63,734 bases of DNA, filler included, from Psammoneis japonica (GCA_008632985.1; 3 parts of 3 records of this genome joined end to end with filler, not necessarily neighbours in it), one strand, 5' to 3'. Positions 1 through 60,105 are shown, counted from the whole stretch's first letter. The notes: generated by a model not told the origin, from the sequence alone. Numbers and translations: made by a program.

Positions 1-2320
1 TGCAAAAAGCGGCGACTGTCTCGTTGGACGATGCGGAGGTCACAACTGTCATCAACGTTGCTGTCGTTTTTGCCTCACTGGCTTCAACAAACTGGATGAC
101 CCATGGATTGAATGTGAGTTTGTCCAAGGACTGGATCTCCACCAAGTGCAAACTAAGGCCAACGACGACAACAGATCAGACAAAGAAAGGAAGCACTGGT
201 TGGGCATCTTGCATTGCCTCAAGCAACACAACGCACCTGCCAGCTGTCTTTTTGAGGCAGACTTTGGCACACAACCACACGGCGTCACCCTTGCAACAGC
301 CAGCGACATGATGCATCTCCTTGAAAATGGCACCTTGAAAAGGGTGATCAACTCATTTGTAGACAGCATGACACATGTGGTCGCAAGTGAGGTGGACAGC
401 ATGGTGGAAAGGATTTTCAGCAATCACCGGTCAACTTGCAAAGAATCCTTTTTGCGAACAAACTTCAAAGGAGGAGCAACGTCGCTTGCCTTCCTCAACT
501 CTCACCACTGGGCTGGAATGGCTTTTGTTTTCTACCTTCTTCTGTTGACCAGCAAGGGACGAAACGCATGTGAGCCATGCTTCCTTGACGAGGACGCAGA
601 CGGACCCATTGTTCCAGAGAATCGCAAGACACCCAAAGTGAACTTTGAGAGTTGCTGCCAACCCAGTGAGTGCTTGGACTCTGACGATGAAAGGTCGGAG
701 GAGTCCAAAGAGGGTGACTGGGACGAAAATGAGGATGAGAAAGAGGAGAGTGAGGCTGAGGATGGTGACGACAACCAAAAAAAGAAAAAACACAAGGGAA
801 CAAGACTTGGCTGCAGTGTCCGGCAATTCATTCAATTGCTCGAGGACCTTCTTGTCTTCCGCGCATGGCACAGGCCAGGCCATCCACCCATCACAAGCGT
901 CACTCCCAGTTCATCTGTTCAGAAAACAAACAAGAAAATCCGTCTCCTCATTGACCGGACGGGATGGTGCAATTCATCCCGCGAACAGAAGGATGCGGAT
1001 GGAAGCTTCAAAAGCTTCATGAAACACTCCATCTCCTGGTGTTTCTTTGTTGTCACCAACATGCGATGAACTTTGACGCAGGGTTGGGGGAATGTCTCTT
1101 GAAAGACTTTTTCAAGCTGCCGTCATCTGCTGCACAACAACGCAACCTCGACAGTTTTCTCAAGCACGACGTGTGGAGGACCAAATGAGGCTCAACGCCA
1201 CAATTTCAGCTGATGGTCGGATTTTGTCAACTGGGAAAAAGGAATCATCAAGAGTCAGGACGGACAATCACATGGTGGGAGGAAGTGCGTTCACTCTCAC
1301 CTGCAGCCGAGGGATCGGCGCTGTGACGTTTGAGTGGAACAGCTTGCATGCTCATTGCCAAGTTCATCCTGTGTTGCCAAACTTCATGTCGGAAAAGTGG
1401 GAGGATTGTGTTGGTGAAGACAGTGAAAGTGCACACCTGACTTGCAAGACAGAGTTTTGCAATGCAAGCGGGAGGGACACATGCCGTGCACACCCCGATT
1501 GCAAAAGCAAAGGACCATGGCATGACTTTGCCTGTGTGACCTTCGGCACACGAAACGGCAATCAACAGTTTCCCTCCCGTTTGCTGTGTTTCTTCGAACA
1601 GGAAGACACAGGATCAATTTTTGCAGTGGTCCACCCAACTGCTCATCAAGCTGACCAGAGAACCATGAGGCAAGACGCGTTCCAGCCCCAGGTGGGAGCT
1701 CGCAGTGCTGACGTGTGACACAAATGATTTTTGTCATCCGTCGCATGTTTCACACGTACATTTCTGCGTGTCACATTTAAAAAAAAATGTCCAGACTTGC
1801 TGTTTTGCGAAGCCCCAGACGTTTTATGCAACAAATTCATAGAAACAATGATGCGCCAGTTGCATTCTTCAATGTCTGAAGAATGCAACTGGCTGAGCAA
1901 AAAATGATGTGCTTCAATCATGGGCGAGTTTGTGCGTTCGCAAAATTGCCTCATTTTCTGATGGCGATCATTGACATTTTAATTGCTGTGTGATTTTGCT
2001 GCGGTGCTCGCACGCAGAATTCTGCGGGCCCAATGTCACACGGATTCCCACCTGCATCTGGAACGCGTCACAACGGCATCAGCATGCAGACTTGGTCAGT
2101 CGCTGGCAGCTTGATCACAAATGAAACATTTGGCTTTCAACGCCTGAGAAGACTCTGCACTCACCCAAGTCACGTGTTGTCCCTGTTGAAGCAATTGGGG
2201 ACAATGTTTTGGTTTATGAAGAATGTCCAGGAGCAGTGGAAGCGCAAGAAAAGGCCCGATTTGTTTGGGCCACACAGGACAGAAGGAAGTGTTGGTCAGA
2301 TTTGTTTCTAAAATGGGACG
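1..2320 (+). pseudogene. Plavaka-like (CMC/CACTA-related) transposase, 3' part, frameshifted and MITE-interrupted
   Basis: Near-identical to 11117-13440. Motifs GWKLQKLHE, NFDAGLGECLLK and RAHPDCKSKGPWHDFA are split over frames. Confidence 0.75.
1674..2069 (+). mobile_element. ~395 bp MITE, GACGCG family, copy 1
   Basis: TIRs gacgcgttccagccccaggtggga / tcccacctgcatctggaacgcgtc. Flanks gcaa/acaa (4-bp TSD with one CpG-type change). Removing it restores the frame MRQRHQHADLVSRWQL. Confidence 0.92.
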
Positions 2321-2334
2321 CGTGTGTCAATCTG

Positions 2335-3395
2335 TCATTCACTCACAGTGATTTCCCAACTGTTTCTTGAAAACATGATGAGTTTGTTCTCTTCAGAATT
2401 GGCAAAGTCTTTGTGGTGCACGTGAAGCAGTGCGGCACGAGTGCCTTCCATTGCTTTCGTTCTGATGCTTTGTGCCAAAAACGAAATCCAATCCAATTCT
2501 TCCATTGCATCCTCCTCCAAAGGGACAATGACAAAATCACTGTGCCTCCCCTCACATGAGCAATCAGTCATGCGATCAAATGCGCAGGTTGCCTCACTGA
2601 CACACCCAACAAAACGCTTGATGTAATTACGACGAGTCGTTTCCTGCTTCATTTTTGGACATTGTCTCCGCAGTTTCCTGTCCTTTTCATCGTCCCAATG
2701 AAAAGGACAGGACCCTCGACCCAAGTCCCTCCTTTTCTTGATTGTTTCCAAGATCCAACCGTCAACCTTCCTCGGCGTTAATTCAAAGAACTCCAATTCG
2801 TCACACCACCACAACCTGCAAGGTGCGTCTCGCTCTGCTTGTCGCTCGAACAAATTCGCCAGCTTCCTTGCATCAAACACGACGCCCTTTCGGTCCACAA
2901 CCAGTTTGTGCACATCTCCTGAACCGTTGTCCAATGCGAGTGGTCTGCAATTCCCGCTGTTGTCCATTCCACATGTGGGCAAGCTGATGGTTGAATCCCT
3001 GCTCAATGAATCAACATCTTGCTTGTCAATCGCCAGACGAAACTCGCCCTCCCTTGACCCAGCTGCAAACTCATCAATCAGCTCATTGCTTGGTTTGTTT
3101 GACCAACCGTTTGCCGCATGCTGTTCTCCCTGCCTCTCCGGGTGCATTGCCAGCAAGTTCCAATGCTGGCGTGTTTTGTGAGCATTCCTCGCTCGCTCGA
3201 CAATCCAACTTGAACGCTCGTCCTTGTCGTGAATGGAGAACATGGCCTGTGCAGCGTGCATGTGTTCCCTCACTTCCCTGCTCCATTCATGCATGTTCTC
3301 ATGGACCCGGCTCATGATTTTGTATTTGGTTTCCGACAGTTCCTTCCATTTCTCCTTGATGGTCTGCTCATCTCTTTCCATGCAATGGAAGCCAT
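2335..3395 (-). pseudogene. Transposon accessory ORF of unknown function, internally deleted copy
   Basis: Same protein as 13453-14811 minus ~100 codons. Almost no Tyr. Tail-to-tail with the transposase. Confidence 0.55.
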
Positions 3396-4534
3396 GGTGC
3401 AAATGAAGGTGACTTGCACGGCTGTGGCACGATGACAGAGAGGCAACCGACAGGTCACGCGGCGCCATGGTTGCTGTTCCAACACCAAAAAATCTGGTTT
3501 CTGTAGAAATGCACCAGAGTGGTGTGTGGGAGAAGTTGCATGCGCGCCTGGTGCAATTTGGAGTTTTAAACACAAAAACCTGCCAGACGTGTGTGTGACT
3601 TCTCCCAGGGAAATCCCACGTGAGATCATGCCGGGAAAGGGCAATGTGGAGTGTAGAATTGATGGAAGAAAATGTTGTGCGGAACAGCATCAGGAGAAAG
3701 GGTGCATGTGCTGGAAAACAACATGGATTTCTACATGCGCGTTGAGGCACGTGAAAAACACGTGGGTGCCTTCAAGTGACGCATGCGAACAATCACAAAG
3801 AAACATTCGGAAATGGAGACAGCATGGAGAGAAGTCAGAAACATGGATCCAAAACAAGTGACACCCAACAGAAAAAACAACAACAACAACAACAAGAGAT
3901 GAAGGCGACGGTGACGGGATTGATGAAAAAGAAGGATTCGGGTGGAAAGACACTGGAGACGGTGAAAACAGGCGGCGCCAAGACAAGGAAGGAAGAGAAA
4001 AATGGGACGGGCAAAATGAAGAAAGAGAAAAAGAAGCCGATGACAACACGTCAAGAGGGGAGCAGCGATGCGATTCAGCATTTCGAGGGACCTCTTCCTC
4101 TCGATTGTGTTCACCCAAATGCAAGACATGCAGTGTGGCTTTTTTGGAACGGCCACGAGGAAACATCCAATGCGGCAGCGGCATGTTTGAAATTCTTGCA
4201 AGAGAGCAGACAAGACATGTGGAATGAAGAGGACGATGCGGACAACCAGGCTGATTGAAGCACAGTTGTTGATTGAACAATTGGTGCACACTTTGCATGA
4301 TGAAAATTGCGTTGCATGCAATTGCAATGTTTGGCTTGTCGTTAAAGATCGTCAGTTGTTGTGAAAAAGGCAGAGCATGAAAATTAAAAAGCGTCTGTGT
4401 TCAAACATGAAGAACAGCATGAGATCAATGATCGACCAAATGACAAAAACCGTTGTGTGCAGACAAGCAAATTTCGTGACATGGCAACACAATTTTGTCA
4501 TGCATGCAGACATTACGATGTCGTGCACTCTGAT

Positions 4535-5520
4535 GACGGAAATGTTGGAAAACACGAAAATGCGGAAATGCGGGAAAACATGAAAAGGCAGAAATGCAGA
4601 AAAATGCAAAAAGACAAAAATGTGGGAAAAGACGGAAATGTGGGAAAACACGAAAGACGGAAATGCGGAAAAATGCGAAAAGACGGAAATGCGGAAAAAC
4701 ACAAAAATGCGGGAAAACACGAAAATGCAGAAATGCAGGAAAACATGAAAACAACGCATTCCAGATGCGGGCGGGAATCCGTGTGACATGGGCCCATGGA
4801 ATTCTGCGTGCAAGCTCCGCAGCAAAATTGTCAAGTGATTGGTGCGTCAATGATCGCCAACAGAAAATGAGGCAATTTTGCGATCGCACAAACTCACCCA
4901 TGATTGATGCACATCATTTTTTGCTTGGCGTGGTGCATTCTTCAGACATTGAAGAATGTGCTGGGCACATTGATGTTCCCACAATTTTGTCAAACAAAGC
5001 ATCTGGGGTTTCGCAAAACGCGAGTCTGGGACAATTTTTTTGAAGATCACACGCAGAAATGTGCGCCTGAAACATGCGACGGATGACAAAAAACAATTTT
5101 CTCACACGTCAGCACTGCGAGCTCCCACCCAGGGCTGGAATGCGTCAAACACAGAAATGAGGGAAAACAGGAAAACATGGAAATGTGGGAAAACACGGAA
5201 ACACAGAAATGCAGGAAAACACGAAAATGCGGAAATGCAGGAAAACACAAAAACATGGAAATGTTGGAAAACATGAAAATGCGGAAATGCAGGAAAACAT
5301 GAAAAGACGGAAATGCGGAAAAATGCAAAAAGACAAAAATGTGGGAAAAGACGGAAATGCAGACAAATGCAAAAAGACGGAAATGTGGGAAAAGACGGAA
5401 ATGCGGGAAAACACAAAAATGCAGAAATGTGGGAAAACATGAAAACACAGAAATGTGGGAAAACATGAAAATGCGGAAACACGGGAAAACACACAAACAC
5501 GGAAATGTGGGAAAACATGA
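4535..5520. repeat. Degenerate purine-rich minisatellite (~9-bp subunits such as gaaaatgcg/gaaatgcgg/gaaaacacg), subterminal in the duplicated block
   Basis: Directly visible tandem variants, interrupted by MITE copy 2. Confidence 0.9.
4753..5146 (-). mobile_element. GACGCG-family MITE copy 2, opposite orientation to copy 1
   Basis: Ends aacgcattccagatgcgggcggga / tcccacccagggctggaatgcgtc. TSD aaac at 4749-4752 and 5147-5150. Confidence 0.9.
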
Positions 5521-5625
5521 AAACCCTCACAACACACACCGTCCACATGACCAAACCTTGGCTGCAACCATTTGCACAATCATTCTCGACAATCCTTTGC
5601 TGTTTCTTTCCACCAAAACACCAAA

Positions 5626-7499
5626 ATGGAAATGCCACAGTCCAAAAACAAGGCTGAAGAAGCAATTGCCTGTCCCTGTTGCCATCGCTCCTTCCACCAG
5701 CGCATGCTCGGTCACTTAAATCGCAATCCACAATGTCTCTCTGTCGCTCGCGAATTGTCAAACTTGGCGTCACAAGGTGCATCGGTGAAAGCTTCATGAA
5801 ACACTCCATCTCCCAGCGTTTCTTCGCCATTGCCGACATGCGATGAACTTTGATGCAGGGTTGGGGGAATGTCTCTTGAAAGATTTTTTCAAGCTGCCAT
5901 CATCTGCTGCACAACAACGCAACCTCGACAGTTTTCTTGAGCAAGTCGTGTCGCGCATGGAGGACCAAATGAGGCTCAACGCCGCAATTTCAGCTGATGG
6001 TTGGATTTTGCCAACTGGGAAAAAGGAATCATCAAGAGTCAGGACGGACAATCGCCTTTGTCTTTTGCCTTCTGTTGCTTGCAAAGGAGGGTTGCATGGT
6101 CTGCGCACCCTGCTTCAGCAAAGAAGACGCGGAGGAACCTTCACTTCCCTTGGGTGGTTGCATCCCAAAATTCAGAATGGATGGAATCTACACGCCTCAA
6201 GAGTGCAGCCCGGAGGATGATTGCCAGGCAGCAGTTGATCTAGATGACAGAGAAGACACAGCAGCCAACAAATGAGACGCTGACCGTTCTGTTGAAAACA
6301 ACAACAACAACTCAGACAATGAAGGAGAGGGCAAGTGCAAGAGAGCCAACAAAAAGAGAATCCCAGTTGGGTGCAGCGTTTGCCAGCATGTGAAGCTGCT
6401 TGAAGACATGCTTGCATTCCGTGCATGGCACAAGCTGGGTGACCCTCCTTCAGACAGAAACAACCTTCAAAAGATTGCAAAAAAAATTCGTTTGCTTGTC
6501 GCTCGTGTGGTCCATTTCTCCCCAAGGCACAAGGGTGCTGGTTGGAAGCTGCAAAAACTCCATGAATTGATCCATTTGCCCACTTTCCTGTTCTTCTGCC
6601 GTCATGCCATGAACTTCAATGCTGGTCCAGGCGAGCCCTTGTTGAAGGATTTTTTCAAATTGCCAGCCGTGATGGCTCAACAGCGCAGCTTTGATGTCTT
6701 CTTGGGCCAGGCTGCATCTCGCATGGAAGACCAAATGATGGTTCACTGAGCCATCTCCGCCAATCCATGGATTGCAAACAAGTTGGATTGCTAAATGCGT
6801 GCGGCGGGCGATGCGGCCAATCACCGTCTGGGTGGTTCCTCATGCGTGTTGAAGTGCAATGCTTCGAACAAGGCTGTTTGTTCCTGTGGAAGGGAAAACA
6901 AAAGCATTGTCAGGTGCACCCTGTTCTCCTCAAATTTGCAGGGAAAAAAGTGGAAGGAATGTGTTGGTGATGGAGAGAACCAGACAAAAAGCATTCTTTG
7001 CAAAACCGAGCATTGCAACAAAAACGGCATCGACACTCACCGCGCGCACCCGGACTGTGACAGTGAAGGCGCCATTCATGACTGGGCAAATGCAAATTTT
7101 GGAACTCATTGCGGTGATTTGTTCTTCCCTTCACGACTTCATTCTTTCTTTCAAAGATTGAGCGATGGTGAGTCATTTGCAGTTGTGCATCCTTGCACTT
7201 GCCAGGCAGACAAGCACACCATGGTGGAACGCATGCAACACACCGACCTTGTCAGTCAATGGCAATTGGATCAAGTCAAAAACCAAGAGTTGTCCACACG
7301 CAAAAAAGCCGTGCATGCTCCAAAACTGCACTTGGTTCCAATCGAGGCGGTCGGTGAAAAATTGCAGGTGTGCAAGGAACAGCCGGGAAATGCAGTCACA
7401 CGAGAAGACAAAGCATGTTTGGACAGTTCAAGACAGGAGAAAAACATGGGCGGCCAAGTTTCACAACAGCAGTTGATGGACATGATCGATGATTGGTGA
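5626..7499 (+). pseudogene. Mosaic of Plavaka-like transposase fragments: N-terminal Zn finger, a third copy of an internal segment, and the 3' half of a diverged paralogue
   Basis: CPCCHRSFHQRMLGHLNRNPQC. 5788-6052 matches 1011-1270. 6390-7440 carries GWKLQKLHELIH, NFNAGPGEPLLK and HRAHPDCDSEGAIHDWA. Confidence 0.7.
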
Positions 7500-7996
7500 C
7501 TGCAAACAGTGCTTTGCACTTCAAAACAGTGTCACAGCATGCCTTTGGAACATGTGCAGTTTCGGAAACAGATGAAAAAACCCTCATCACTCACCTGATT
7601 TGTGCAGTTGACAAGACCACAAGAATTGAAGGAGTCAGCTTCATTCGTCAATGTGCAGGTCCAGAAACCACAGGGGCCACGGGTCAAGGTGGGTCTGCCA
7701 ATTGGGCATGCTCATCAGAGTGCACAAAGTGTTAAAAATGTGCAGATTTGCATGATGAAAATTTGTCAAAACATTGCAAAAAATCATTGCGACACAATTA
7801 AAGGCCAACCTCTGGTTGCAAGTTTGGTGCACCAACTTGCAATGACTCATTGAGAACTGTGCATGCCATTTTTCACCATGTCCACATCACTGTTTCTGCC
7901 TCCACCTTGTTGCCACATGCCAATGCATGATTGCATTGCCACACAATCCTTGGTTTGTAAATTTTCGCAAGGATCATTTTAAACAAGAAAATCATT

Positions 7997-9420
7997 TCAT
8001 TGGTCAAGGCAATCCCTCGTCATGTCTGCAGTGCAATGACTGAGTGCCATGTTAACTGTGCGCACATTTTCTTGCTGCAACTCTCTCAAACCAAGCCAAT
8101 GATCATCATCGGACTCGTCTCCATCGGACTCGTCTCCTCCGTTGTCCGTTTTGCCTTTTGTCCCTTCCTCCTGCTCATCGTCATCACCATTGTCGTCCCT
8201 GCTGCTCTCCACCATTGGGCTGTTCATTGCCTTCACCTTCTCCACATCACCGGTCGGTGCTTCCTTCTTCTTCTTTTTTGCTTCTTTGGACTTTTTGCAC
8301 TTGCTTTTCTTGATCTCCGCATGCCTCTTTTCAAACTCCTTGCCCTCCTTGGAGTCTCTGTCTTTCATCACCTCTTTGCACAAATCGTTGAACAGATTGA
8401 ATCCCTCGTCTCCCCAAGACACTCGTTGTTTCTTTGGCTTCATGTGCCAAGGGGCAGGCCTTGTTTCTTCGGGCTCCATTTCCTCACCCAATTCTTCCAC
8501 CGCCTCCTCCTTGTTCCTGCGTGCCCACACCTGCCAACAACTCTTCATGGCTGACAGTGCCAAAGCTTCGTTGCTGACCACAAACAACTGTGAGACCTGT
8601 GCGTTCCCAGTTTTGACGGTCTTGCTCCATGCCTGCTTTTGCTTGGTTTGAGGTAGCATGTGATCACAGAACCACTTGCATGCCTGCTTGTTCCTTTTTT
8701 ACCGCCGGTGACAGTGTCTGGGCCAAACGGATCCCATGTCGGCACAAACGGGATGTCATTCTCTTCATTCTTGTCACGGCTTGATTTGTTCCTGCCTTGC
8801 TTTTTCCTCCTGACTGCCGCCTTGAGTTTCTTTTCTTTTTCCTTTCCCTCTTCCTCAGTGACAACGCCCATGTAGACAAAGCATCACCGCAATCTTCTTG
8901 TGAGATGCGCGCAACTCTGAATCACACACATTGGTCACTTGGCACGGGCCATTGCCTCCACCCCAACAGCCAAACACACCGTGTTTCTGCAATTGTCAAT
9001 TTGCCTTTTTGCCGCCTTTTTTGCCCATTCCTCCCAAGTTCCTGACCAATTTGAAGTGTCCATGTTGCCACCAGCAATCTGTTTCTTGACAAACATTGAG
9101 ACGCTCCCATTGCTTGCCAATTCTGATGGACTGAGAAACTTCACCTGTGGAAAGAGATCATTTCTAGCCACCTTCTCTGCTTCTGATTTCAATGCACCAT
9201 GCGCTGCCTGCGCACCTGCTCTCTTCAACACTGCCTGAAGTCTCGGGCTCATTTGCTCAACAGTCTCATTTTTCTTTCTCTTCTTTGCCGGTGGTGCTGG
9301 AGACCACATCTTGATCTTTTCACAGCAACAATGAGAGGAGTGGTGCTGTTCGACAGTGCAACCGTCGTTTGGGTCGTGTTGAGACAGCCAGGCACTCCAT
9401 TTTTCTCTGTGACATTGCAT
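7997..9420 (-). pseudogene. Transposon accessory protein (basic, NLS-like N-terminus, acidic tail), frameshifted
   Basis: PPAKKRKK, LFPQVKF, VSNEALAL..W..W and SWGDEGFNLFNDL resemble ORFs that accompany Plavaka/CMC-like transposases (from recall). TA-depleted. Divergent from the 9756 transposase. Confidence 0.55.
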
Positions 9421-9755
9421 GAATTGTTGTCAGCAATGTTGAAATTTGAAAATGTGTTTGTGTGTAACAACGAATGGCCCAACTTGCTTTTCATGTGGCT
9501 GTCATTGCGTTTCAACGGAGACGACATTTCGCATTTTGACAGCAAATAAAAAGTGCAACATTCATTGTGAATGCCAGATAAAAAATCAAAATGCAGACAT
9601 GTCACACCCACAAGAATCATCCAAATCTGGAAGACAATGTAATGTTTGCCAATTTCTCACCATTTTTTTGCGTGTTGTTCTTCTTTTCCCTTCTCATCCA
9701 CAAGACAAGGATGACGAGCATGAGTCTTGATGAAGGCCCTGTCAATGTTGTCTGA

Positions 9756-12700: not shown

Positions 12701-13440
12701 TGTGTTTCTTCGAACAGGAAGACACAAGATCAATTTTTGCAGTGGTCCACCCAACTGCTCATCAAGCTGACCAGAGAACCATGAGGCAAGACGCGTTCCA
12801 GCCCCAGGTGGGAGCTCGCAGTGCTGACGTGTGACACAAATGATTTTTGTCATCCGTCGCATGTTTCGCACGCACATTTCTGCGTGTCACATTTAAAAAA
12901 AAAATGTCCAGACTTGCTGTTTTGCGAAGCCCCAGACGTTTTATGCAACAAATTTATAGAAACAATGATGCGCCAGCTGCATTTTTCAATGTCTGAAGAA
13001 TGCAACTGGCTGAGTAAAAAATGATGTGCTTCAATCATGGGCGAGTTTGTGCGTTCGCAAAATTGCCTCATTTTCTGTTTGGCGATCATTGACATTTTAA
13101 TTGCCGTGTGATTTTGCTGTGGTGCTCGCACGCAGAATTCTACGGGCCCAATGTCACACGGATTCCCACCTGCGTCTGGAACGCGTCGCAACGGCATCAG
13201 CATGCAGACTTGGTCAGTCGCTGGCAGCTTGATCACAAATGAAACAACTGGCTTTCAACACCTGAGAAGACTCTGCACTCACCCAAGTCACGTGTTGTCC
13301 CTGTCGAAGCAATTGGGGACAATGTTTTGGTTTATGAAGAATGTCCAGGAGCAGTGGAAGCGCAAGAAAAGGCCCGATTTGTTTGGGCCACACAGGACAG
13401 AAGGAAGTGTTGGTCAGATTTGTTTCTAAAATGGGACGCG
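9756..13440 (+). pseudogene. Plavaka-like transposase, near full length, inactivated
   Basis: 760-aa ORF with N-terminal CxxC..H..C, IYLDKT, EPVIMT, WKPLGCLPDL, RDHHTCLHVILEPL, IMGDAKSGDCLVGR and CRFC. Then a stop, frameshifts and a MITE. Confidence 0.8.
12790..13187 (+). mobile_element. GACGCG-family MITE copy 3
   Basis: TIRs as copy 1. Perfect TSD gcaa at 12786-12789 and 13188-13191. Confidence 0.93.
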
Positions 13441-13452
13441 TGTGTCAATCTG

Positions 13453-43054: not shown

Positions 43055-43222
43055 TGAAAGTTGTTGAAAGTTACGTCTTTCAACAAAAAGTTGTTGAAAG
43101 TTGCGTCTTTCAACAAAAAGTTGTTGAAAGTTGCGTCTTTCAACAAAAAAGTGTTGAAAGTTAACGACTTTCAACAAAAAGTTGTTGAAAGTTGACGACT
43201 TTCAACAAAAAGTTGTTGAAAG
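43055..43222. repeat. Related 30-bp array, about 5 units, at the other end of the TIR element
   Basis: gttgttgaaagttgcgtctttcaacaaaaa variants. Confidence 0.9.
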
Positions 43223-45046: not shown

Positions 45047-45146
45047 NNNNNNNNNNNNNNNNNNNNNNNNNNNNNNNNNNNNNNNNNNNNTTAATTAATT
45101 AANNNNNNNNNNNNNNNNNNNNNNNNNNNNNNNNNNNNNNNNNNNN
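45047..45146. other. Assembly join with TTAATTAATTAA linker (45091-45102)
   Basis: Same construct as at 22412. Confidence 0.95.
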
Positions 45147-48659: not shown

Positions 48660-49364
48660 CGTTTCTTTCACAAGTTACTATCACAAGGCTCGACGAAGAG
48701 GATCTTATCACGTTGTGCGATTGGGTCACAGAGCTTTTGCGTGGATAGTTTGAGTGTTTGTGATCTTTACCAATCCCGAGATATGGAACGCTGATTTGCG
48801 CCGCCCCATCAGGTTCACGTAGGCGTGAAACGAAGTGAGTTCTTTGGCTGGCAAAAAATGTGAGCGGGTCTTGTTGCCGATTTTCAGATGGCAAAATGTG
48901 GTTTGTGTCGTGGAAAATAAATTTATGTTTGTATTCAGAACTAACGTTCCCAATTTCAGGGTACTGTCAATCCTCTTTTATNNNNNNNNNNNNNNNNNNN
49001 NNNNNNNNNNNNNNNNNNNNNNNNNNNNNNNNNNNNNNNNNNNNNNNNNNNNNNNNNNNNNNNNNNNNNNNNNNNNNNNNNNNNNNNNNNNNNNNNNNNN
49101 NNNNNNNNNNNNNNNNNNNNNNNNNNNNNNNNNNNNNNNNNNNNNNNNNNNNNNNNNNNNNNNNNNNNNNNNNNNNNNNNNNNNNNNNNNNNNNNNNNNN
49201 NATGCCCGTGGGCAACAAAATCCAACGTACGCGCATCGAATCTACCACGGTCAGTACGAGTTGAGCTCAAGAAAAAACTCTGACTCGTTAGATTTCATTG
49301 AAAGACTGAAACGAGATTTTTTTTCAAACAGCATTCGCTACTTGGATTCTCTTGTTCAAATCAT

Positions 49365-52300
49365 TTAGGAATGAAAGACCCGACTTCTCATTTTTCCACC
49401 TTTGCCACCCTTGCTGGATGCCGAAGACGGAGGCTTCGCGATGCTTGAAGAGAAGCTAGATTTTGAATGTCCACCCTTGCTCTTGGCAGATGAATAAGTA
49501 GCAGATCCCGAAGACGGTGTAGGTTTGAATCCCATCTTTCCTTCCTTGTCCTTGGAGGAGGAGCCGTAGGATCCCTTCTTTACTCCCTTGCTCTTGGAAG
49601 AAGAGCCCGAGGATCCCTTCTTTTCTCCCTTACCCTTGGAGGAGGACGATCCCTTCTTTCCGCCCTTGTTCTTGGAGGAGGACGAACCCTTCTTTCCGCC
49701 TTTACTTTTAGAGGAGGACGAACCCTTCTTTCCGCCCTTGCTCTTCGAGGAGGATGAACCTTTCTTTCCTCCCTTGCTCTTTGAGGATGATCCTCCCTTG
49801 CTCCCCTTGCTCGGTGGCTTCGGCGAAGGTGCAGGCGGCTTTGTAGGCTTGGGTGTCGGAGCAGAGTGGGAGCTGGTGTTGGCTCATGGGTCGGAGCAGG
49901 AGTGGGCTCAGGTGTCGGCTCATGCGTCGGAGCAGGAGTGGGCTCAGGTGTTGGCTCAGGCGTCGGAGATGGAGTGGGCTCGGGTGTCGGAGCTGGTGAT
50001 GCCGGCGGCTTTGGTGACGGCGCTGACCCGCCCTTGCTCTTGGAGGACGAGCCACCCTTGCCGCCCTTGCTCTTCGACGATCCACCTTCTTTCCGCCCTT
50101 GCTCTTGGAGGAAGACGAACCCTTCTTTCCGCCCTTGGATCCGCCCTTACTCTTCGAGGAGGATGAACCTTTCTTACCTCCCTTGCTCTTTGAGGATGAT
50201 CCTCCCTTGCTTCCCTTGCTCGGTGGCTTCGGCGAAGGTGCAGGCGGCTTTGTAGGCGTGGGTGTCGGAGCAGGAGTGGGAGCTGGTGTTGGCTCAGGCG
50301 TCGGAGCAGGAGTGGGCTCAGGCGTTGGAGCAGGAGTGGGCTCAGGCGTTGGAGCAGGAGTGGGCTCAGGTGTCGGAGCAGGAGTGGGATTAGGTGTCGG
50401 AGCAGGTGTTGCTGGTGGCTTTGGCGACGGCGCTGGAGGCTTTGGCGAAGGGGACGGAGGCTTAGGCGCTGGTGACGGGGGCTTTGGAGACGGTGACGGG
50501 GGCTTAGGCGTCGGATCAGGTGTTGGCGAATGCGTTGGAGAAGAAGTAGGAACAGACGTCGGTGCAGATGTTGGCGCAGGCGTGGGGGCTTTTGATGGCT
50601 CTGGCGATGGCTTAAGGGTTGGTGCTTGTGTAGCAGGTGGCTTCGGCGAAGGCGACGGGGGCTTTGGAGACGGTGATGGTGGCTTTGGCGAAGTCGACGG
50701 CGGCTTCGGAGACGGCGATGGCGGCTTCGGAGACGGTGATGGCGGCTTCGGAGACGGTGATGGCGGCTTCGGAGATGGCGACGGAGGCTTCGGCGGACAA
50801 GGACCCGGTGATGGCGGCTTTGGCGACGGTGGCGGCGGCTTCGGTGATGGTGACGGTGGCTTTGGCGACGGCTTCGGTGCTTTCGTTGGAGCCTCAGTTG
50901 CCGGAGGTGGTGGCTCCACAGAAGGTGCCGCAGTTGCAGGAGGCGGCGGAGAAGGCGACGGAGGTTTCGGCAAAGGTGACGGGGGCTTTGGCGAAGGTGA
51001 TGGCGGCATTGGGTAAGTTGTTGGAGAAAGAGTTGCCGGAGGCGGTGGAGGTTTCGGCGAAGGTGACGGGGGCTTAGGCGAAGGTGAAGGTGGCATTGGG
51101 GATTGTGTTGGAGAAAGAGTTGCCGGAGGAGGTGGTGAAGGTGGTTGAGGTTTCGGCGAAGGTGACGGTGGCTTGGGCGACGGTGGCATTGGGTACTTTG
51201 TTGGAGCGTGAGTTGCCGGTGGCTTCGGAGAGGGCGACGGGGGCTTGGGCGAAGGTGACGGGGGCTTTGGGTACTGTGTTGGAGTTGCAGTTGCAGGAGG
51301 TTCTGTTTGGCAGTCGGAGCTACCGGAGGCTTCGGAGAAGGTGACGGAGGCTTTGGTGAAGGTGACGGGGGCTTTGGGTACTTCGTTGGAGTCGCAGTTG
51401 CAGGAGGTTCTGGTTTGGCAGTCGGAGCTACCGGAGGCTTCGGAGAAGGTGACGGAGGCTTTGGCGAAGGTGACGGGGGCTTTGGGTACTTCGTTGGAGT
51501 CGCAGTTGCAGGAGGCTCTGGTTTGGCAGTCGGAGCTACCGGAGGCTTCGGAGAAGGTGACGGAGGCTTTGGCGAAGGCTTGGGATATTTTGTTGGCGGA
51601 AACGTCGGCGCTTTCGTTGGGGGTTTCGCCGGGGGAGTAATCGGTTCAGGAGGCTTAGTTGGAGATGCCGTTGGCGAAGGAGGGGTAATTGGCGCGGGTG
51701 GCGTGGTTGGAGATGCCGTTGGCGAAGGAGGAGTGATTGGTGCGGGTGGTGCAGTTGGAGATGCCGTTGGTGAAGGAGGGGTAATTGGTGCAGGTGGCGT
51801 AGTGGGTGGCAGCGTCGGGCGGGGTTGAGGCGGTGGGGTATCGGGTTGATCGGTTGGCGACAAGGTTGGCTCCAGAGTAGGAACAACAGTCGGCACAACG
51901 GTAATAACTGCATCTGGTGCCGACGGAGCGGGTGTCGGTGGCGGCGACGGCTGCCTCGTCGGATTGCTTGTAATGACCTGATCTGGTGCCGACGGCGCAG
52001 GAGTCGGAGGTGGAGTAGGTGTGGGCGTCGGGGGCGGCGACGGTTGCCGCGTCGGACTGCTTGTAATAACCTGATCTGGTGCCGACGGCGCAGGAGTCGG
52101 AGGTGGTGTAGGTGTGGGCGTCGGGGGCGGCNGTTGGAGTGGGTGTAGGAGGCGGCGTCGGAGTGGGTGTAGGGATGGGGTAAGTAACTTGATCTGGCGC
52201 CGACGGTGCGGGCGTCGGAGCGGCACTGGTGGCGGTGTCGGACCCGGTTGTGGTGGTGGGGTTTCGGGTTGATCGGTTGGTGACACGGTCGGCTCCAGAG

Positions 52301-54142
52301 TAGGAACAACAGTCGGCCCTACGGTAATAATTTCATCGGGTGCAGACGGGGCGGGTGTCGGAGGAGGACTGGGAGTAGTAGGCGGCGTCGGACTGGGTGT
52401 AGGAGGCGGTGTCGGACTGGATGTAGGGGATACGGTAATAACTGGATCTGGCGCCGACGGTGCGGGTGTCGGAGGCGGAGTCGGTGCGGATGTCGTGGGC
52501 GGCGTCGGACTGGGAGTAGTAGGCGGCGTCGGACTGGGTGTAGGAGGCGGTGTCGGACTGGATGTAGGGGATACGGTAATAACTGGATCTGGCGCCGACG
52601 GTGCGGGTGTCGGAGGCGGAGTCGGTGCAGATGTCGGAGGCGGCGTCGGACTGGGAGTAGGAGGCGGCGTCGGATTGGATGTAGGGGATACGGTAATAAC
52701 TGGATCTGGCGCCGACGGTCGGGGTCGGAGGTGGCGTTGGGGATGTAGACGGTGTTGGTGTCTGGGCTGTTGGCTCCGGACTCGGCGGTGGCGTTGGTGA
52801 TGTAGTTGGGCTGAGTGTCGGGGAAGGTGTAGGCACCAGGCGTGGGAAACAGGTGATGTCGGAGCTGGCGTTGGGGACGAAGACGGTGGTGGCGTCTGTG
52901 TGTTGGCTCCGGACTTGGAGGTGGCGTCGGCGAAGTAGTTGGGCTGAGTGTCACAATAGGTTCTCCCGCGGTTGGAGTAGGTGTCGGCCCCGGCGTCGGC
53001 GAAGGAGTAGGAACAGGTGTTGGTGGTGGTGTGGCCAACGGGTTTGTGACAAACTCGTATACCGCAGTATCCTCGCAAAGTTCGCCAGTAGGGAGAGGTA
53101 GCGCCTCAGCCACAATTTCCGTCCTATAGGTTGACGCGACGCACACGTCGATGGTTTCCGTGTTGGAAACATTACCTTTCTGCCCTGTCGATAGAGGGTT
53201 GGGAAGAAACTGGCCGACAAGGCTGGTGCTGTTCCCATCCCTAGTTTCGTCCAACGTGACCACTCTGATGGGCGTAGACCCCGTATTCTCGACAAAGTAG
53301 GTAACTGAAATGCTGGTAAGGCAGTCTTTGGATGCGCCTCCAACGTCACAGCCCTTCAGATGTAAACTGGCAAGCTCATCGTTGAGGCGCAGTGGGGCTG
53401 TTCCAGCAGCATTGAATGTAATCGTTTGGCCTCCTACCGTACAATTCATGACTGTGGGGAGTGCAGATGAACCCCGGAGATTTGAAACAGCATTTCCAGG
53501 CATCACACCAGACTCACTCGCAAAGCTATTGCCATTTTCATCAATGCAACTAATGTCCACGTCACTTGAAGGAGTATCGCCAGAGCAAGAAAATTCGCTG
53601 CCCTGGGATTGCTTTGAAGCACTGCAGGCGGTTGGCTGGTACACAAAGGTTAGGTCGGTCACAGGGGCACCGGTGAAGCACTGGCCATCCGGTTGAGCAA
53701 TGTTATCGCAGTCGACCGAGGTATCGTCCGTGAGTGTACAGCTGATGGTAGCCTGAACATGGAACAACGAGAAACATGGATAAGTTAGGGGTGCACGTAG
53801 AACTGTCAATAATCAGCGAGTACTTACTTCAGCAATACATTCAAGTCTTTCGGTTGGACTTGGGGTCGGTGATGGAGTAGGACCAGCTGTTGGCGACAGA
53901 GTCTCAACCGGTTCAGGCGTAGTTGGAGAGGGAGTTGGGAACCTGAAGATAAGGCCGGGAGATTTCGTCGGCGCACAGGTTGTGGTGTCAATCAGGAGCT
54001 CTCTATCTCCCTTACGGAGATGAAATCCTTTTGGGCTTCCCAGAATCTCAGAGGCACGACGAAGGATTTTACTGTAGAAGCGTTCATCTGCAGCCGCGTG
54101 CGGTGCTACAGATATCAGGAGCAGCACAGCTGCAATCCGCAT
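49365..54142 (-). CDS. Paralogue 2 of the same secreted protein, with an extra Cys-rich globular domain and one intron
   Basis: [18 protein letters not shown] and the same N- and C-termini. GT-AG intron 53753-53827 joins ECIAE to ATISCTL in frame. Frameshifts and an n in the repeats suggest sequence error. Confidence 0.78.
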
Positions 54143-55122
54143 CGTTTCTCTTTCAAGTCACTAATCACTAACACAAGGCTCGAGAAGGACCTTATCACGA
54201 AGTTCTTTTGGGTCGCTGAGCTGTTGCGAGGAAAATGTGAGTGTTTTTGATCTTTACCAATCCCGAGATATGGAACGCTGAGGTGCGCCGCCACATCGGG
54301 TTCACGTAGAGTAATACGAAGGAAAGTTCTTTGGTTAGCAAAAATGTGAGCGGGTCTTGTTGCCGAGTTTTTTTGAACCCGGTTTCATGATGAATAATTT
54401 TTTTCTCGATACTAAAATGAGTTAGCATCGCAAACGTGTGGTTTGTGTCATGGAAAATAAATAAATAAACCCTATAAAGGTATTTAGGTTTTTTTGTCTA
54501 TGTTGGCTAATACTTGAATATGAATATAATTAAAAGTATATATATGTTTGAAAGTCTATCATTTGATCGCGCTATCACATCCACAAGCTTTCACATTCAA
54601 TTGAATTTTTTAATTTTTATTTCGAGTCGTGTGATGGACCCTCCGTTGAATGTCAAGTGTTATTCAAAGTAACAATGACTGTTTTTGAAGATATACCAAT
54701 CCCGGATGGTCGGCTTGGCTTTCCTCGTTGTCGGAGTGGCGCACTCCAATCGTGACTTCCTGCGTCAGCACTATTTTCCTGCGCGCCATCACCATTTCCC
54801 AGTGGCTGTGACGGATGTCACTTGAAATGTGCTGATAAATGGGGCACATGCAAGAATGCTCAGGCATCAAACGTCACATGATCAGGCATTGTTCACATGT
54901 GGTGTGCGAGGGCAAGAATGTCAACCTTGGTCTCTCTGTGGAGGGTGTTGAGGACAGACACTCCTGACATGTTCACTTGGATGAACGAACTTGAGCAGGG
55001 TTAAAATCCTTGCATCGAGTCCCACAGTCAACTTCGATGCGACACACATGCAGGATTTTTTGTGCAAGTTTGGCTTGGCATTTTTTGAGTCTTACGAGGA
55101 ACAGTGAGATTGTTGCCACAAC

Positions 55123-55519
55123 GACGCGTTCCAGCCCCAGGTGGGACTCCGTGTGACATTGGGCCCGTGGAATTCCACGTGTGAGCTCAATTGTAAAATT
55201 GTTGAGCAATGAACATGTGAATGATTGCCAACAGAAAAAGAGGCAATTTTGCAAACGCATCTCCTCCTCCACACTTTGAGCACATTCTTTGCGCAGCATG
55301 CCCGGGTGTGTTTTCAGACACCAAAGAACATGCCCAGCGCACTTTTGTTGTCACAAATGCAGACAACAGAAAGCCTTTGGCTTCACAAAACAGGCAGTGT
55401 GGAACAAATTTTTGTGATGGAACATGCAGAAATGCACGTGCGAAACATGCGACGGATGATGAAAAACAACCATGTCACAGCTCAGCAGTGCGAGGTCCCA
55501 CCTGGAGCTGGAACGCATC
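55123..55519 (-). mobile_element. GACGCG-family MITE copy 5 (TA-converted)
   Basis: gacgcgttccagccccaggtggga ... tcccacctggagctggaacgcatc. TSD not clean. Confidence 0.88.
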
Positions 55520-56202
55520 GACGACATTGCTGCGCTCTTGCTCAAATTGGCGCTTTTCATGCAGAAACAGCCCAAGTTTTGAGACATGGTTTCCCAAGTC
55601 ACACTTGTGCATCCAAAGCTCCTGGTGGCCTTTGTCAATTCAGCCCCCATGGGTCCTGCCGCAACAGCTTTTTTGGCGCCACCAAGACAGCAGATGTGTG
55701 AGATGACAGGGCTCTCCTCTGACAAAATCAGCACAACCAATTTTCTGTTGACTGTGACACAAACTTTGTCCAAGAGCTCTCTCTCTCTCTCTCTCTTTCT
55801 TGAACAAATGATCAAAATTTCCATCAAATGTGACAAACAAATGGCGCTGGCAGCTGAGGTGAAGCCACTTGATCGGGCACAATTTGTCCAGCTGTTTCAG
55901 CAAACAGCAGGCACAACAACATTGGCCGAAGTCAAGAAAATGAGATTTTTGCAGTGGCTTCATCAGTGGCTAGCTGCTGTTGTTGATGTGTGGTGAGCTT
56001 TTGTGTTGGAACGATCAGAGGGGCAAGGGACAGGCGATTTGAGTCGACTGATTAATTTGATGTCAAGTCACCACGCTGTCTCTCTCTCTTTCTTTTTTTC
56101 TCTCTCTCTCTCTCTCTCTCTCTTGAATGAATGAGTGAATGAATTGGCACACTCTCTTTCTTTGTCTGGACAGGAGTTTGCAACAGGGTGTGGTCCTGCA
56201 CA

Positions 56203-56595
56203 GACGCGTTCCAGCCCCAGGTGGGACTCCGTGTGACATTGGGCCCGTAGAATTCTACGTGCGAGCTCCGTAGTACGAGAATTTAATTAATGGATATATT
56301 TGTCTTCAACATCAAATAAATGGCCAAGTTTGTGGTACAATTATGCCTGTTACCACTTGACGTTTTTCCAAATGCGCCTGCCCTACGCGATTCTTAAGAC
56401 ATTATAGAATCGCGCTGTAACAAAAAAAAATGTCAAAAGTTGTTGGACGGATCGCTCAATAAGTGTACCGTAAAATGACACAAAATGTCGAAAAAATCAC
56501 GTAGAAATCTACGTGCGCGACATACGACGTGATTCAAAAAACTATCGATGTCACAGTTCAGTAGTACGAGGTCCCACCTAGACCTGGAACGCGTC
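56203..56595 (-). mobile_element. GACGCG-family MITE copy 6 (young, TA-retaining)
   Basis: gacgcgttccag...ctggaacgcgtc. Perfect TSD caca at 56199-56202 and 56596-56599. Abundant TA. Confidence 0.93.
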
Positions 56596-59500
56596 CACAG
56601 CAGCAGTGACAGACACAGCCATGTGATGAAATAGCGTCAAGGGAAATTGCTTGCTTTCTTTCAAAACAGTGAACTGGGGGGCTCATTGCAAGAGTTGCAC
56701 ATGCAACATGTTTTCAGCTCCTCTCCTGCTCTTGGTTGTTGATCAGCTGTGCTTCTGTGCACATCAAACATCCAAAAAAAAGGCCTGGAGACAAGACTGA
56801 TTTTGTCAAAAATGCAAGGGTTTCTCAAAGGTGTGGACAAGTCTCCATGAACTGCAAAGCCAAAAATTCATGTCCACATGGCTCACCTGTTTGCATGGCT
56901 TCACACCAAAAAAATCAAAAACAAGCAGCTGATCCATCACTCACAATCCAGGCAACATCCTGGGGTGTGCCAACAATTTGATCTTGTTTCAAGTGCATTG
57001 AAGAGCCCTCCATGGTTGCCGCACTTGTTGGTGTTTGCATGTCAAAATTGCACACACCTTTTCCATTGCTTTTGTTTCAAAGTGAGCTCAGTCAGGTCTG
57101 TCAGTGCACAGCCCCAGAAGATTCTCCTAACTCACATCAAGTTGAGCCACTCCATGTTGCTTGGCACAACCAGTTGCTGGATGATCCATTTCCCACACGC
57201 TGACAGATGAAAGGTGCTTTGGTTGTCGAGTGGGGTCAAATCCTTTCAAGTGCACCTGAATGGATCTGCTTGCATTGGGACACATCCTTTCAAGCCACAC
57301 ACAGCCATGTCAAGCACACAAGAGAACCCGCACGTGTTCTGCATGGCTCACAAGAAACACCCAAGTTTTGACTCCACAGCATGCACCGTGAGCCTTTGGA
57401 ACACATCGGATGCAGAAGCAGCCAGTGATGACATGAACTTTTTTAAGCATGCCATGTGTCAAAAGCGGCCATGCCATGCACAAGGTGGATGTTGGCACCA
57501 AGCATTGTGCTGGCACCTTGGTGGACAATGAGACCTGCAAGATGGGCATCTTTTGGACCAGGAAAAGGGGCTTGAGTGGCAAGGTGATGATTTGGCTTTG
57601 CTTCAAGGATGACTCTGCCAATGAAGCCCACTGGAACAATGCCCGCATGGTGTCTCTCACAAGTTTTTTTTCAGTGGGAGCTGTTGTGTGAAGCAACAGC
57701 TGAGTGTGCAGCTGATCTGCACAGCATCATTTGCTGCAGTTTTGCAAGAGTTGCTGCACACAATTTTGCATTTGTCAACACCAGTTTGTGACAAAACATC
57801 TCAGTGTTTAAATTGGGGAGCTCAATTGACAACCAAATCATTTGTGTTGGCCAGCAGAGCAAAGTTGAAAGCACCGCCAGCTGACAGATTGGTGAGCACC
57901 CCTCATTCATGATTGAGCCTGGGGAGGACATTGGTGGAAATGACAGCTTTGGTCAAGCAAAAGCAAGCTGCAACAAACAAGCACCTTTTCCAACCTTTTG
58001 TGACCACATCAAAGACTCGCAAGGTCTGCTGCACAGAGAGCACCGTTGAGGGTGAGAGCAGCCCACATCATTGAGTCATGTGATGGGCCATCCACTGCAT
58101 GTCTCAACTCCAACACAAAGTGCAGCAAACATGGTGGCATTTCAAATGAGTGCCTGCCCTGGATGTCATTGTGTCCAAGTGATGCACTCCAGTCCTGGTG
58201 TGCCAGCATTGTTTGAAATGTGCCAACCAATGTGGTGCATGCAAAAAATCTCTGGCAGCAACAGACAAGGCAGCTTTGCAATGAAGCTCAACTGAGCTTG
58301 GGGTTGTTGTTGCAAGAGAGAAGTGTGGTGTCTGACCGCTGCTCCTCTTGGCGGATGGATGGCGAGCTGCTCCACTGCACACTGGCACAAATGTTTTTGA
58401 TTTGAAAAAAAAGCCCTCAAGGTGCACAGCTGCACTAGCCCAAAATCATGCTTTTTGCCAAAGAAGGTGCTGGCAAATCCATGTGCCACAGCACCAAAGC
58501 TCACACTCACTGAGCATGCTGCATGACTTCATGCAACAAAAAAGCCAAAACAAACAATTGGCTTCTCACCCACAATCTCAGCAAAGCACCCCATGACAAG
58601 CCAATGGTTGGTCTTGCATCATCAAAAAAGGGGCATGAGCAAAAACCATCCAGTCTTTCTTTGGTGCTTGCTTCAAAGTGAGCTCAGCCACCCCTGTCAG
58701 CATGTGGCTGGCCTTGACTCTGGTTGCCCCCTGCACACCAACAACCCAAGCCACTGCACGCCAGTTTCTGGCCCACCCCTTTCCCAGACATTGAAGAGTG
58801 AAGGCTCTCTCTGTCACATCACAGCCTCCTGCTGCAGCCAGGGCATGATGGTCAGTTGCTCTCTTTCTGCCAAAGAAATGGCATGTTTCACATTTCTTGC
58901 ACTCATCAGTGCACGACTTTTGGAGCCACGCCCCCCCCCCCCCCCCCCTGGCAGAAAAGGATGCTTTGCAGCCAATGTGCTGTTTCAAAAATGAGAGACT
59001 TGAGGTTGGAAAGGGAAAAAAGGAAAGGATCAAAATGGCATGCCTGGCAAATGCAACAAATCCACTCTTGATCCTTGAAGACCCCTGGAGCCTGGAGGCA
59101 TTTGCTTTCACCCTGCACACATCACTGCACAGAAAAGGGTGGTGGCTGTGAAAGTGCACAAAAACAAGCCAAAAGAGAGGAGGCTGTGAAACACCAATGC
59201 AAAACAATCATGAAGAAGAAGCTGTGCTTGCAGAGAGCAGCGGCATGCACTGCTCTGCTTGGACATTCTGTTTCTGCATGATTAAAAGTCAACAACAATG
59301 ACTTGTTCCCACTTTTTTGCTTTCTCTTTTTGCTTTTTGTTGTTGGCATTCCACATGCTCAAGAGGCAACAACACTGCTGATGGGACTGCGTATGAGGGG
59401 CCCAGTCGATTGTAAAATCTGGGAGAGCTCGCCGCACAATTGATCCCTGCAATTACAATCGAGTCATGAATGACGACATTATGCACGACCAAAGCACTGA

Positions 59501-60105
59501 CAAAATGAAGAGGAGCTGCTTGGCTGACAGTGCGTGCAATGCATGGTTTTCTTCAGCGAAAGTGACATTGGGGCAGAGCGAACGCTTCATCTCTAGATGG
59601 GACAGCTACGCACGAAGCGTTTGACACTAAAGAAATTTTCCGTCACTGCGTATGTTACTGTCAGTCGATGTCACTATCGGACTTAAGCATTGCTTGCACA
59701 AGGATGGCGGTTTCAAGGACGACCAATAGATGATGTCGGGGCTCCGTTTGTCATTTGAGAGTAATGTAGTGCCCGTTGTCTTCAACCCTTGACGAAACAT
59801 ACAAATTTTGAACCGACACAGGCGATATCTTTTAAAAAGAGTGATGGTGCGAGTAGCAAAGAAGCAAAAGATTATCGGGATGCGTTCAGTTTTTCTCCTT
59901 CTTCCATACTCACTCTATCTATCCAAGACGTTACTCACTCATGAAATGCAGTTAGCGTCTCGTTGTTTGTTTGAATATAGGATGGTATGACCGTCTTCTT
60001 GGACTAGGAATCCAGTTTTGTATCTGGAACAGGATGTGTATCCAATGATATCTCGAAGCACCCAACGGTTGCTGCTCAAAGCAGTTAAACGACAAAGAAA
60101 AACCT

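Follow-up and report, generated by a model that had tools for sequence, protein, structure and literature searches.

The window analyzed here, by which we mean the whole stretch of 63,734 bases (G+C ∼50%), consists of blocks of transposon-like and unclassified DNA that are nearly devoid of the dinucleotide TpA (TA), set among blocks of host genes in which TA is far more frequent. Over the window as a whole the observed/expected ratio (O/E) is 0.25 for TA, 1.47 for TG, 1.46 for CA, and 0.71 for CG, with AA (1.29) and AT (0.88) ordinary. Read in 1-kb bins, the TA O/E is 0.00–0.15 at 1–17 kb, 0.06–0.30 at 22–45 kb, and 0.02–0.06 in the bins at 55, 57, and 58 kb, and it reaches 0.29–1.22 (pooled 0.65) in the gene blocks at 17.7–21.3, 45.1–54.65, and 59.7–63.7 kb. 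The first depleted block (1–17400) is nested or duplicated transposon-like DNA with a TA O/E of 0.00–0.13 per kilobase and CA/TG ratios of 1.47–1.81. The second (21400–45046) has a content that we leave unclassified and is interrupted by gaps at 22368–22467 and 30154–30935. The third falls into two parts, one at 54750–56150 with 0–3 TA per 200 bp where 11–16 are expected, and one at 56620–59400 that is depleted of both TA (O/E 0.02–0.04) and CpG (0.13–0.17) and has a single-copy contig depth of 54–64. The untouched host blocks lie at 17700–21300 (TA O/E 0.6–0.7; an 891-aa open reading frame (ORF) at 18281–20956), at 45147–54650 (a tandemly repeated family of GC-rich genes, of which one has a DUF7467 domain), and at 59700–63734, where a UPF0014-ABC fusion gene (60106–62022, minus strand) is followed by an aldo-keto reductase gene (∼62.6–63.5 kb, plus strand).

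The contrast is plain when segments are pooled according to the per-kilobase TA profile. The depleted DNA (44,347 bases) holds 324 TA where 2,990 are expected, an O/E of 0.11, with CA at 1.54, TG at 1.65, and CG at 0.57, whereas the host genes and spacers (16,918 bases) hold 615 of 952 expected, an O/E of 0.65, with CA at 1.06, TG at 1.02, and CG at 0.97. In the depleted DNA AA stands at 1.28 and AT at 0.84; the loss thus affects TA specifically. The first-pass annotation had proposed just such a TA-specific loss in transposon-like DNA beside normal genes, and the pooled ratios bear it out; an equal loss in the genes is not what we find. The edges of the blocks are 100–300 bp wide: TA per 200 bp climbs from 1 to 12 at 17.4–17.7 kb, drops from 13 through 3 to 0 at 21.2–21.4 kb, and drops from 18 through 7 to 2 at 54.5–54.7 kb. 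Host non-coding DNA at 54,300–54,700 has a normal TA content (15–23 per 200 bp, with 21–25 expected), and the contrast is therefore not one of coding versus non-coding sequence.

An error of sequencing or assembly might be suspected, given that the assembly contains gaps and isolated N calls and that one such N interrupts a gene frame. However, the depletion switches on and off within 100–300 bp, beside normal genes and around an intact transposon copy (copy D, below). In addition, the TA-free sequence at 57199–58238, with 2 TA in 1,040 bases, recurs in separately built Logan contigs of run X1, which depart from it at 11 letters and by 5 gaps; contigs of the same run also span 59014–60081. Run X1 is possibly the window's own sample, so this agreement excludes an assembler artefact but does not amount to independent biology, and sequencing support for the TG and CA bases goes as far as the contig level. 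We give an artefact virtually no credence.

Block 1 contains a segmental duplication on the plus strand, 1–5539 paired with 11117–16938, at 97.6% and 95.2% identity. The block also holds a 760-aa ORF (9756–12038, plus strand) that we call a KDZ/Plavaka-like transposase, hypermutated and still open; it has 913 homologues at E ≤ 1e-3 and 93 at E ≤ 1e-30, the best with E = 1e-125, and a weak Pfam match to Plavaka (19 bits, under the 26.3-bit cut-off). No names attach to the homologues. A 787-aa open frame in block 2 (31169–33532, minus strand) belongs to no recognizable family: there was no homologue among 7,999 scored candidates, no relative in viral_contigs, and no likeness to the 760-aa ORF. 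The earlier description of both frames as transposases thus stands for the first and is not supported for the second. A viral origin of the depleted blocks, as described for hypermutated regions of the alga Bigelowiella natans (Mettrop et al., bioRxiv 10.64898/2026.01.13.699255), is not supported, the 787-aa ORF having no relative in viral_contigs. Pfam searches with ORFs of the depleted DNA (127 submissions, some of them overlapping; 20 taken to E = 0.1) gave the sub-threshold Plavaka match as their only result, and no Copia, LINE (long interspersed nuclear element), reverse-transcriptase, or integrase domain was found; TpA-erased DNA evidently defeats the domain searches used in annotation. 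Consequently, the claim that all transposon classes are depleted can be kept for the DNA transposon and for the miniature inverted-repeat transposable elements (MITEs), with the exception of MITE copy D, which is normal, and is not supported for Copia and LINE elements, whose domains were not found. Within the depleted DNA, mobility is proven for the KDZ-like transposase and the MITEs alone, and the remaining sequence is unclassified.

Several features of block 2 deserve a brief record. Five consecutive same-strand frames of 200–400 aa lie in TA-free DNA at 35445–40183 (plus strand); none matches a Pfam family, and they look like a single long coding region split by frameshifts. A tandem array of 30-bp units (41217–41811; 19.8 units, 97% alike) keeps one TA per unit in the context TTAG, and a second array of 30-bp units (5.6 copies) lies at 43057–43225; the unit holds its own inverted repeat (CTTTCAACA...TGTTGAAAG), with its one TA in TTAG or TTAC. 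The identical odd gap of 44 N, 12 bases, and 44 N occurs twice, at 22368–22467 and 45047–45146, and is probably a scaffolding artefact. An Rfam scan of the window gave 0 matches and a tRNA scan 0 genes.

The MITE family provides an internal control, since mutated and unmutated members lie 700 bp apart and the direction of change can be read without outside data. Six copies of this ∼395-bp element with terminal inverted repeats occur in the window: the TA-poor copy A (1674–2069, plus strand) and its duplicate A2 (12790–13187), identified by shared terminal inverted repeats; copy B (4754–5146, minus strand), with no TA in its aligned ends, and its duplicate B2 (16149–16545); the TA-poor copy C (55123–55519, minus strand), at a summed contig depth of ∼43,000 against ∼55 for single-copy DNA; and copy D (56203–56595, minus strand; depth ∼80,000), which has the same terminal repeats but a normal content of TA and CG. 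Copy D (393 bp) has 14 TA per 200 bp where 14.8 are expected, amid DNA that is TA-free, and it is flanked by a perfect 4-bp duplication, CACA; it looks like a young insertion of a family that is possibly still active. A metagenome scan with the MITE terminal repeat returned 10 loci (L001–L010) with no further BLAST similarity to the window, and we take these as chance matches.

The interior of copy D does not align with the other copies, and the comparison covers the element ends, 180 aligned positions of D, with D taken as ancestral. Its 11 TA sites have 33 fates in copies A, B, and C: TG in 14, CA in 13, TA in 2, and something else in 4. Three TA survive in A, A2, or C, and each falls at a TA site of D. 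An A that follows T became G in 14 of 33 cases as against 4 of 77 for other A, and a T that precedes A became C in 13 of 33 as against 10 of 111 for other T, which together give 27 of 66 in TpA context and 14 of 188 elsewhere (odds ratio 8.6, nominal p = 3e-9). The enrichment of A>G after T that the first-pass annotation predicted is thus present. At four sites (columns 30, 99, 367, and 375) one copy reads TG and another CA, a choice that points to independent hits after insertion. At 4 of the 11 sites copies A, B, and C share an identical outcome, so an already mutated copy must also have multiplied. At two TA sites of D the young duplicates A and A2 differ, one of them retaining TA, which indicates that the process continued after the 97.6%-identical duplication.

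The coding sequence tells the same direction. There are exactly 4 Tyr among the 760 and 4 among the 787 residues of the two long ORFs, matching the count of about 4 made earlier, with Cys at 4.9% and 2.8% and His at 3.8% and 4.1%, respectively; the Tyr content of the 760-aa ORF is 0.5%, whereas for the 150 homologues listed the median is 2.9%. We compared transposase columns taken from stacked BLASTP pairs with homologues. In the 5 columns that show Tyr in half or more of the homologues, the 760-aa ORF has His (CAC) in 3, Tyr in 1, and Arg in 1; in the 12 columns whose Tyr share is 30% or more, it has His in 4, Cys in 3, Tyr in 2, and other residues in 3. Control columns are kept, with Trp at 4 of 4, Cys at 4 of 4, Asp at 13 of 14, and Gly at 15 of 18. 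Codon usage across seven depleted ORFs is equally lopsided, with 3 ATA against 110 ATG, 3 GTA against 84 GTG, 8 TTA against 129 TTG, and 15 TAY against 152 TGY and 185 CAY. The stop density per codon is nonetheless nearly the same in depleted (0.0286) and host DNA (0.0318), because TGA is enriched, and we therefore do not regard the long ORFs as a by-product of the loss of TAA and TAG; with 0.0286 stops per codon locally, 760 codons would be stop-free with a probability of ∼4e-10. By the rules of the genetic code, a change of TpA to TpG or CpA never turns a sense codon into a stop (TAA>TGA remains a stop, and TAA/TAG>CAA/CAG/TGG removes one). Elements would then be disabled by missense, Tyr to His or Cys, while their frames stay open.

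These data bear on whether selection, rather than mutation, made the elements TA-poor, that is, whether the transposons evolved to avoid TA (for example, to evade TA-rich RNA signals or a host nuclease that reads TA), with later multiplication of TA-free masters. The four shared outcomes among A, B, and C do show that a mutated copy multiplied, and the 760-aa and 787-aa frames are open against long odds. On the other hand, open frames are expected anyway from a process unable to create stops, Tyr columns conserved at 84–91% that read His here suggest damage more than adaptation, MITE sequence, which is non-coding, is affected equally, and the choice of TG or CA varies among copies at one site. 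Nor was the ancestor TA-free, as far as the window can tell: the only TA-intact MITE member in it, copy D, is not TA-free, and where the transposase family has Tyr the 760-aa ORF has His or Cys. We see only a slim chance for selection.

Mass balance separates the TA loss from ordinary CpG decay. In the pooled depleted DNA the surplus of CA+TG is +3,282, the deficit of TA is −2,666, and the deficit of CpG is −1,110; the surplus is too large for the CpG deficit, which covers one third of it, and the TA deficit is needed as well. CpG decay is itself real in this DNA. The two copies of the segmental duplication differ by 165 substitutions, 147 of them transitions, and CG versus TG/CA is the main dinucleotide difference between them (80, as against 17 for TG versus CA and 8 for TA versus TG/CA); in the MITE comparison with D, 18 of 105 CpG positions changed as against 6 of 176 others. 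The CG O/E per kilobase in depleted DNA ranges from 0.07 to 1.04. This second process is ordinary decay of CpG to TpG/CpA, best read as decay of methylated cytosine, and it is independent of the TA loss, since the TA and CG O/E are uncorrelated across 42 depleted 1-kb bins (Spearman 0.20, p = 0.21), with TA at 0.00 in a bin where CG is at 1.04. CpG O/E is 0.07–0.3 at 22000–26000, 35000–38000, 44000–45000, and 56600–59400 and ∼1.0 at 4–6, 16–17, and 33–35 kb; this unevenness suggests cytosine methylation of some elements only, or differing ages. An account in which decay of 5-methylcytosine to T alone made the CA/TG surplus, in elements that were TA-poor from the start, could cite the 80 duplicate differences and the CG O/E of 0.07–0.2 in some blocks. 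It is contradicted by the uncovered two thirds of the surplus, by the bin with full CG and no TA, and by the TA-intact family member and the conserved Tyr columns that read His or Cys, and it is in our estimation very improbable.

Both strands are hit equally, locally too. Over 145 bins of 300 bp the variance of the TG−CA skew is 0.92 of the binomial value in depleted DNA and 5.8 in genes, and a search for strand-coordinated tracts in the depleted DNA found none. This symmetry matters for RNA-level A-to-I editing of transposon transcripts by an ADAR-like enzyme, fixed through reverse transcription. Clusters of A>G are known in retroelements, and this counts in favor of such editing. A U before the edited A is also usually favored by ADAR, according to the B. 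natans preprint (bioRxiv 10.64898/2026.01.13.699255). Yet the elements in which we demonstrate the change are a DNA transposon and MITEs, which have no RNA passage, no reverse-transcriptase domain appeared among the 127 ORF submissions, the strands are equal at the 300-bp scale, and AA is not depleted. The retro-copied elements and strand-coordinated A>G clusters by which ADAR action coupled to retrotransposition is recognized were not found in the window, and editing of RNA is about as doubtful as CpG decay alone.

The surviving TA sites suggest a flanking-base rule. Of the 324 survivors, 69 are in TTAA (22 of 615 in host DNA) and 1 is in ATAT (34 in host DNA), and all ten strand-symmetric TA contexts fit a simple additive order. 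Loss appears to be fastest before T, then C, G, and A and, by symmetry, after A, G, C, and T, an order that reflects survivors rather than a measured rate. The flanking order predicted from the same survivors is TAT > TAC > TAG > TAA, and TTAA should be the last to go.

Taken together, these observations lead us to conclude, with a probability of about 0.85, that a DNA-level process acted on TpA and hardly anything else, converting it to TpG or CpA, near to saturation, in the transposon-like DNA of the window. The window itself displays the direction of the change, its specificity for TpA, its strand symmetry, its confinement to blocks, and its activity after a recent segmental duplication. 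In chemical terms the change amounts to A>G on either strand or, equally, T>C; defined blocks are processed up to edges of 100–300 bp, with genes and host spacers a few hundred bases away spared; CpG>TpG/CpA decay runs independently in the same DNA; and we regard the process as of the same kind as the TpA-only hypermutation that was directly measured in B. natans mutation-accumulation lines. The first-pass annotation, which read the window as DNA-level conversion of TpA to TpG/CpA on both strands of mobile DNA, sparing genes and running inverse to the direction of repeat-induced point mutation (RIP), was largely right in this core, as the mass balance, the MITE fates, and the skew variance attest.

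Several points weigh against this conclusion. The polarized test depends on a single TA-intact copy, D, and on element ends only, and the shared outcomes in A, B, and C mean that the copies are not fully independent, so the p value of 3e-9 is too optimistic. Of the 8 differences of TA versus TG/CA between the duplicates, only 2 are polarized; the other 6 are not, and we do not count them, as ordinary transitions at 1,090 CA/TG sites would yield about as many. Differences from the contigs (40 of 159 listed) mostly reflect cross-mapping of paralogues (the genes at 46–50 kb and the MITEs), show no TpA bias, and yield no usable spectrum. For most of the depleted DNA (22–45 kb and 56.6–59.4 kb), a transposon or repeat identity could not be demonstrated. 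Copy D is untouched although it comes from a MITE family at several-hundred-fold depth, and no enzyme candidate lies within the window.

As to the chemistry, our tentative choice, at somewhat short of even odds, is deamination of adenine at TpA by an ADAT2/TadA-type enzyme. The same outcome could also come from other chemistry, namely, a modified T at TpA (for example, a hydroxylated one) mispairing with G, or WA-biased error-prone repair in silenced chromatin. T>C and A>G on opposite strands are indistinguishable, and the two occur with equal frequency (13 of 33 and 14 of 33). KDZ-class transposons are linked with TET/JBP-type base-modifying enzymes in fungi, which speaks for thymine chemistry, but no modified base is directly in evidence here. 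Repair synthesis by a polymerase of the eta type, with its WA bias, should erode AA too, and AA is enriched here (1.28). We consider such alternative chemistry possible, though unlikely. The enzyme responsible would be a natural editor of DNA specific for adenine (or thymine) at TpA.

The aim of the process is precise, as genes 300–900 bp from a block edge are untouched. It does not seem to follow copy number in any simple way. Summed contig depth reaches 42,000–80,000 over 55.05–56.9 kb, against ∼55 in neighboring DNA, which implies at least hundreds of copies of the MITE families, and the family of copy D is at roughly 1,400 times single-copy depth. Since copy D is intact even though its family is abundant, copy number alone does not seem to be the trigger. 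Conversely, 56.9–59.4 kb is TA-free although its depth, at 90% likeness or more, is that of single-copy DNA. The duplicated 5.5-kb segments are TA-depleted and the 393-bp copy D is intact; the tandem GC-rich gene family at 45700–54400 is repeated yet keeps its TA (O/E 0.29–1.22). The proposal that the process is targeted at repeats in the sense of RIP is not supported by copy D and the single-copy stretch. The simplest reading of copy D is that it inserted after its surroundings had already been processed; if so, the process would be episodic, or a finished block would lose its mark. An episodic mode fits the finding in the B. natans preprint that hypermutation occurs only in some lines. We envisage, then, a host defense that may work in episodes on blocks marked by something other than copy number, perhaps small RNA or chromatin.

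The host genes give some indication of the organism, and several observations speak against B. natans, which we consider an improbable source; a different alga would make the window a second case of the process. The genes of 891, 638, and ∼330 codons are single open frames, the reductase gene being broken only at a lone N at position 63209; this frame break is likely an assembly error and not the sign of a pseudogene. Genes of B. natans, by comparison, contain several introns apiece. The 638-codon gene at 60106–62022 (minus strand) joins a UPF0014 membrane domain and an ABC ATPase (FetB/FetA-like) in one continuous frame. Its best matches are metagenome proteins at 46–47% identity, with none above 47% (sources including eukprot, mmetsp, and uniref); the only source-named eukaryotic match is a diatom protein at 37%, and the nearest Atlas cluster is dominated by diatoms. 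The tandem low-complexity genes at 45700–54400 lie on the minus strand, have a GC content of 60–65%, and are 64–80% alike; an Atlas search with the DUF7467 protein among them found nothing. The 891-aa ORF has only low-complexity PT-repeat matches. Three of the window's ORFs, sought as exact sequences, are missing from the protein collection. We give even odds to the view that the lineage is not B. natans but probably an intron-poor, stramenopile-like alga and that the process is then a widespread eukaryotic defense, with TA-free saturation of old copies, an episodic mode, an aim not set by copy number, and a flanking-base rule. If the organism does differ from B. natans, the process is phylogenetically wider, and it should be detectable in any assembly by a scan for TA and CA+TG.

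The known examples of hypermutation aimed at mobile DNA are mostly C>T editing, by fungal RIP or by APOBEC. RIP, which is set off by duplicated sequence beyond a threshold length, converts CpA to TpA in fungi and riddles genes with stop codons. Like the process described here, RIP (in Neurospora and others) spares genes, loads mobile DNA with transitions at a single dinucleotide on both strands, and skews the dinucleotide composition; the direction, however, is opposite, since RIP makes TpA and thereby stops, whereas the window's process destroys TpA and cannot make them. The RIP signature of C>T at CpA with high TpA/ApT is accordingly absent, TA standing at 0.11 and CA at 1.54. Deaminase restriction by APOBEC or ADAR resembles the window in disabling mobile or viral nucleic acid by clustered transitions next to a fixed neighbor base, but APOBEC gives C>T, and ADAR, an editor of RNA, is not confined to an A preceded by T, whereas here non-retro elements were changed in DNA. 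CpG decay of methylated transposons is found in the same blocks, yet it cannot remove TA and does not correlate with its loss.

The first-pass annotation knew of no description of such a system. A literature search for other accounts of TpA-erasing hypermutation found one, the 2026 preprint of Mettrop et al. (bioRxiv 10.64898/2026.01.13.699255), so the mechanism and the candidate enzyme proposed in that annotation are already in print. This first report of a natural TpA-removing DNA process concerns two integrated viral regions of one alga, B. natans, whose mutation rate is ∼1000-fold that of the remaining genome. In these regions 210 of 211 and 20 of 20 new mutations were A>G or T>C, and all of the GC-biased ones fell on TpA. 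Hypermutation arose only in some experimental lines, and these were clonal, so no sexual stage is needed there. The authors also draw the comparison with RIP, propose an ADAT2-type adenine deaminase, and describe 124 TpA-poor, CpA+TpG-rich clusters across the genome, together with an excess of DDE and reverse-transcriptase domains among coding sequences poor in TpA, a hint at transposons that is statistical only.

The two systems agree in changing only TpA to TpG/CpA, on both strands, in foreign or mobile DNA beside a normal genome, and in leaving a lasting footprint in which TpA is scarce and CpA+TpG abundant. By the preprint's two cut-offs, 47 of the window's 61 scorable 1-kb bins have a TA O/E ≤ 0.43, and 32 of the 61 also have CA+TG ≥ 1.52. 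The two systems differ in degree and in the kind of evidence. The preprint's active viral region bears a mild footprint (Rho TpA 0.45), whereas the loss in the window is near total (O/E 0.11); new mutations were measured in the B. natans lines, whereas the window is known from sequence alone; and the evidence on transposons is Pfam enrichment in the preprint and a DNA transposon, MITEs, and a polarized family comparison here. The words "CpG" and "MITE" do not occur in the preprint's text, and no flanking-base rule appears in its accessible part. The window therefore adds the saturated end state, in which tens of kilobases hold about a tenth of the expected TA, with sharp gene edges and with frames that are open but recoded from Tyr to His or Cys; it adds proof from a DNA transposon and MITEs and a polarized comparison within one family; and it adds a co-existing CpG decay, a flanking-base rule, and an intact young insertion amid the erased DNA.

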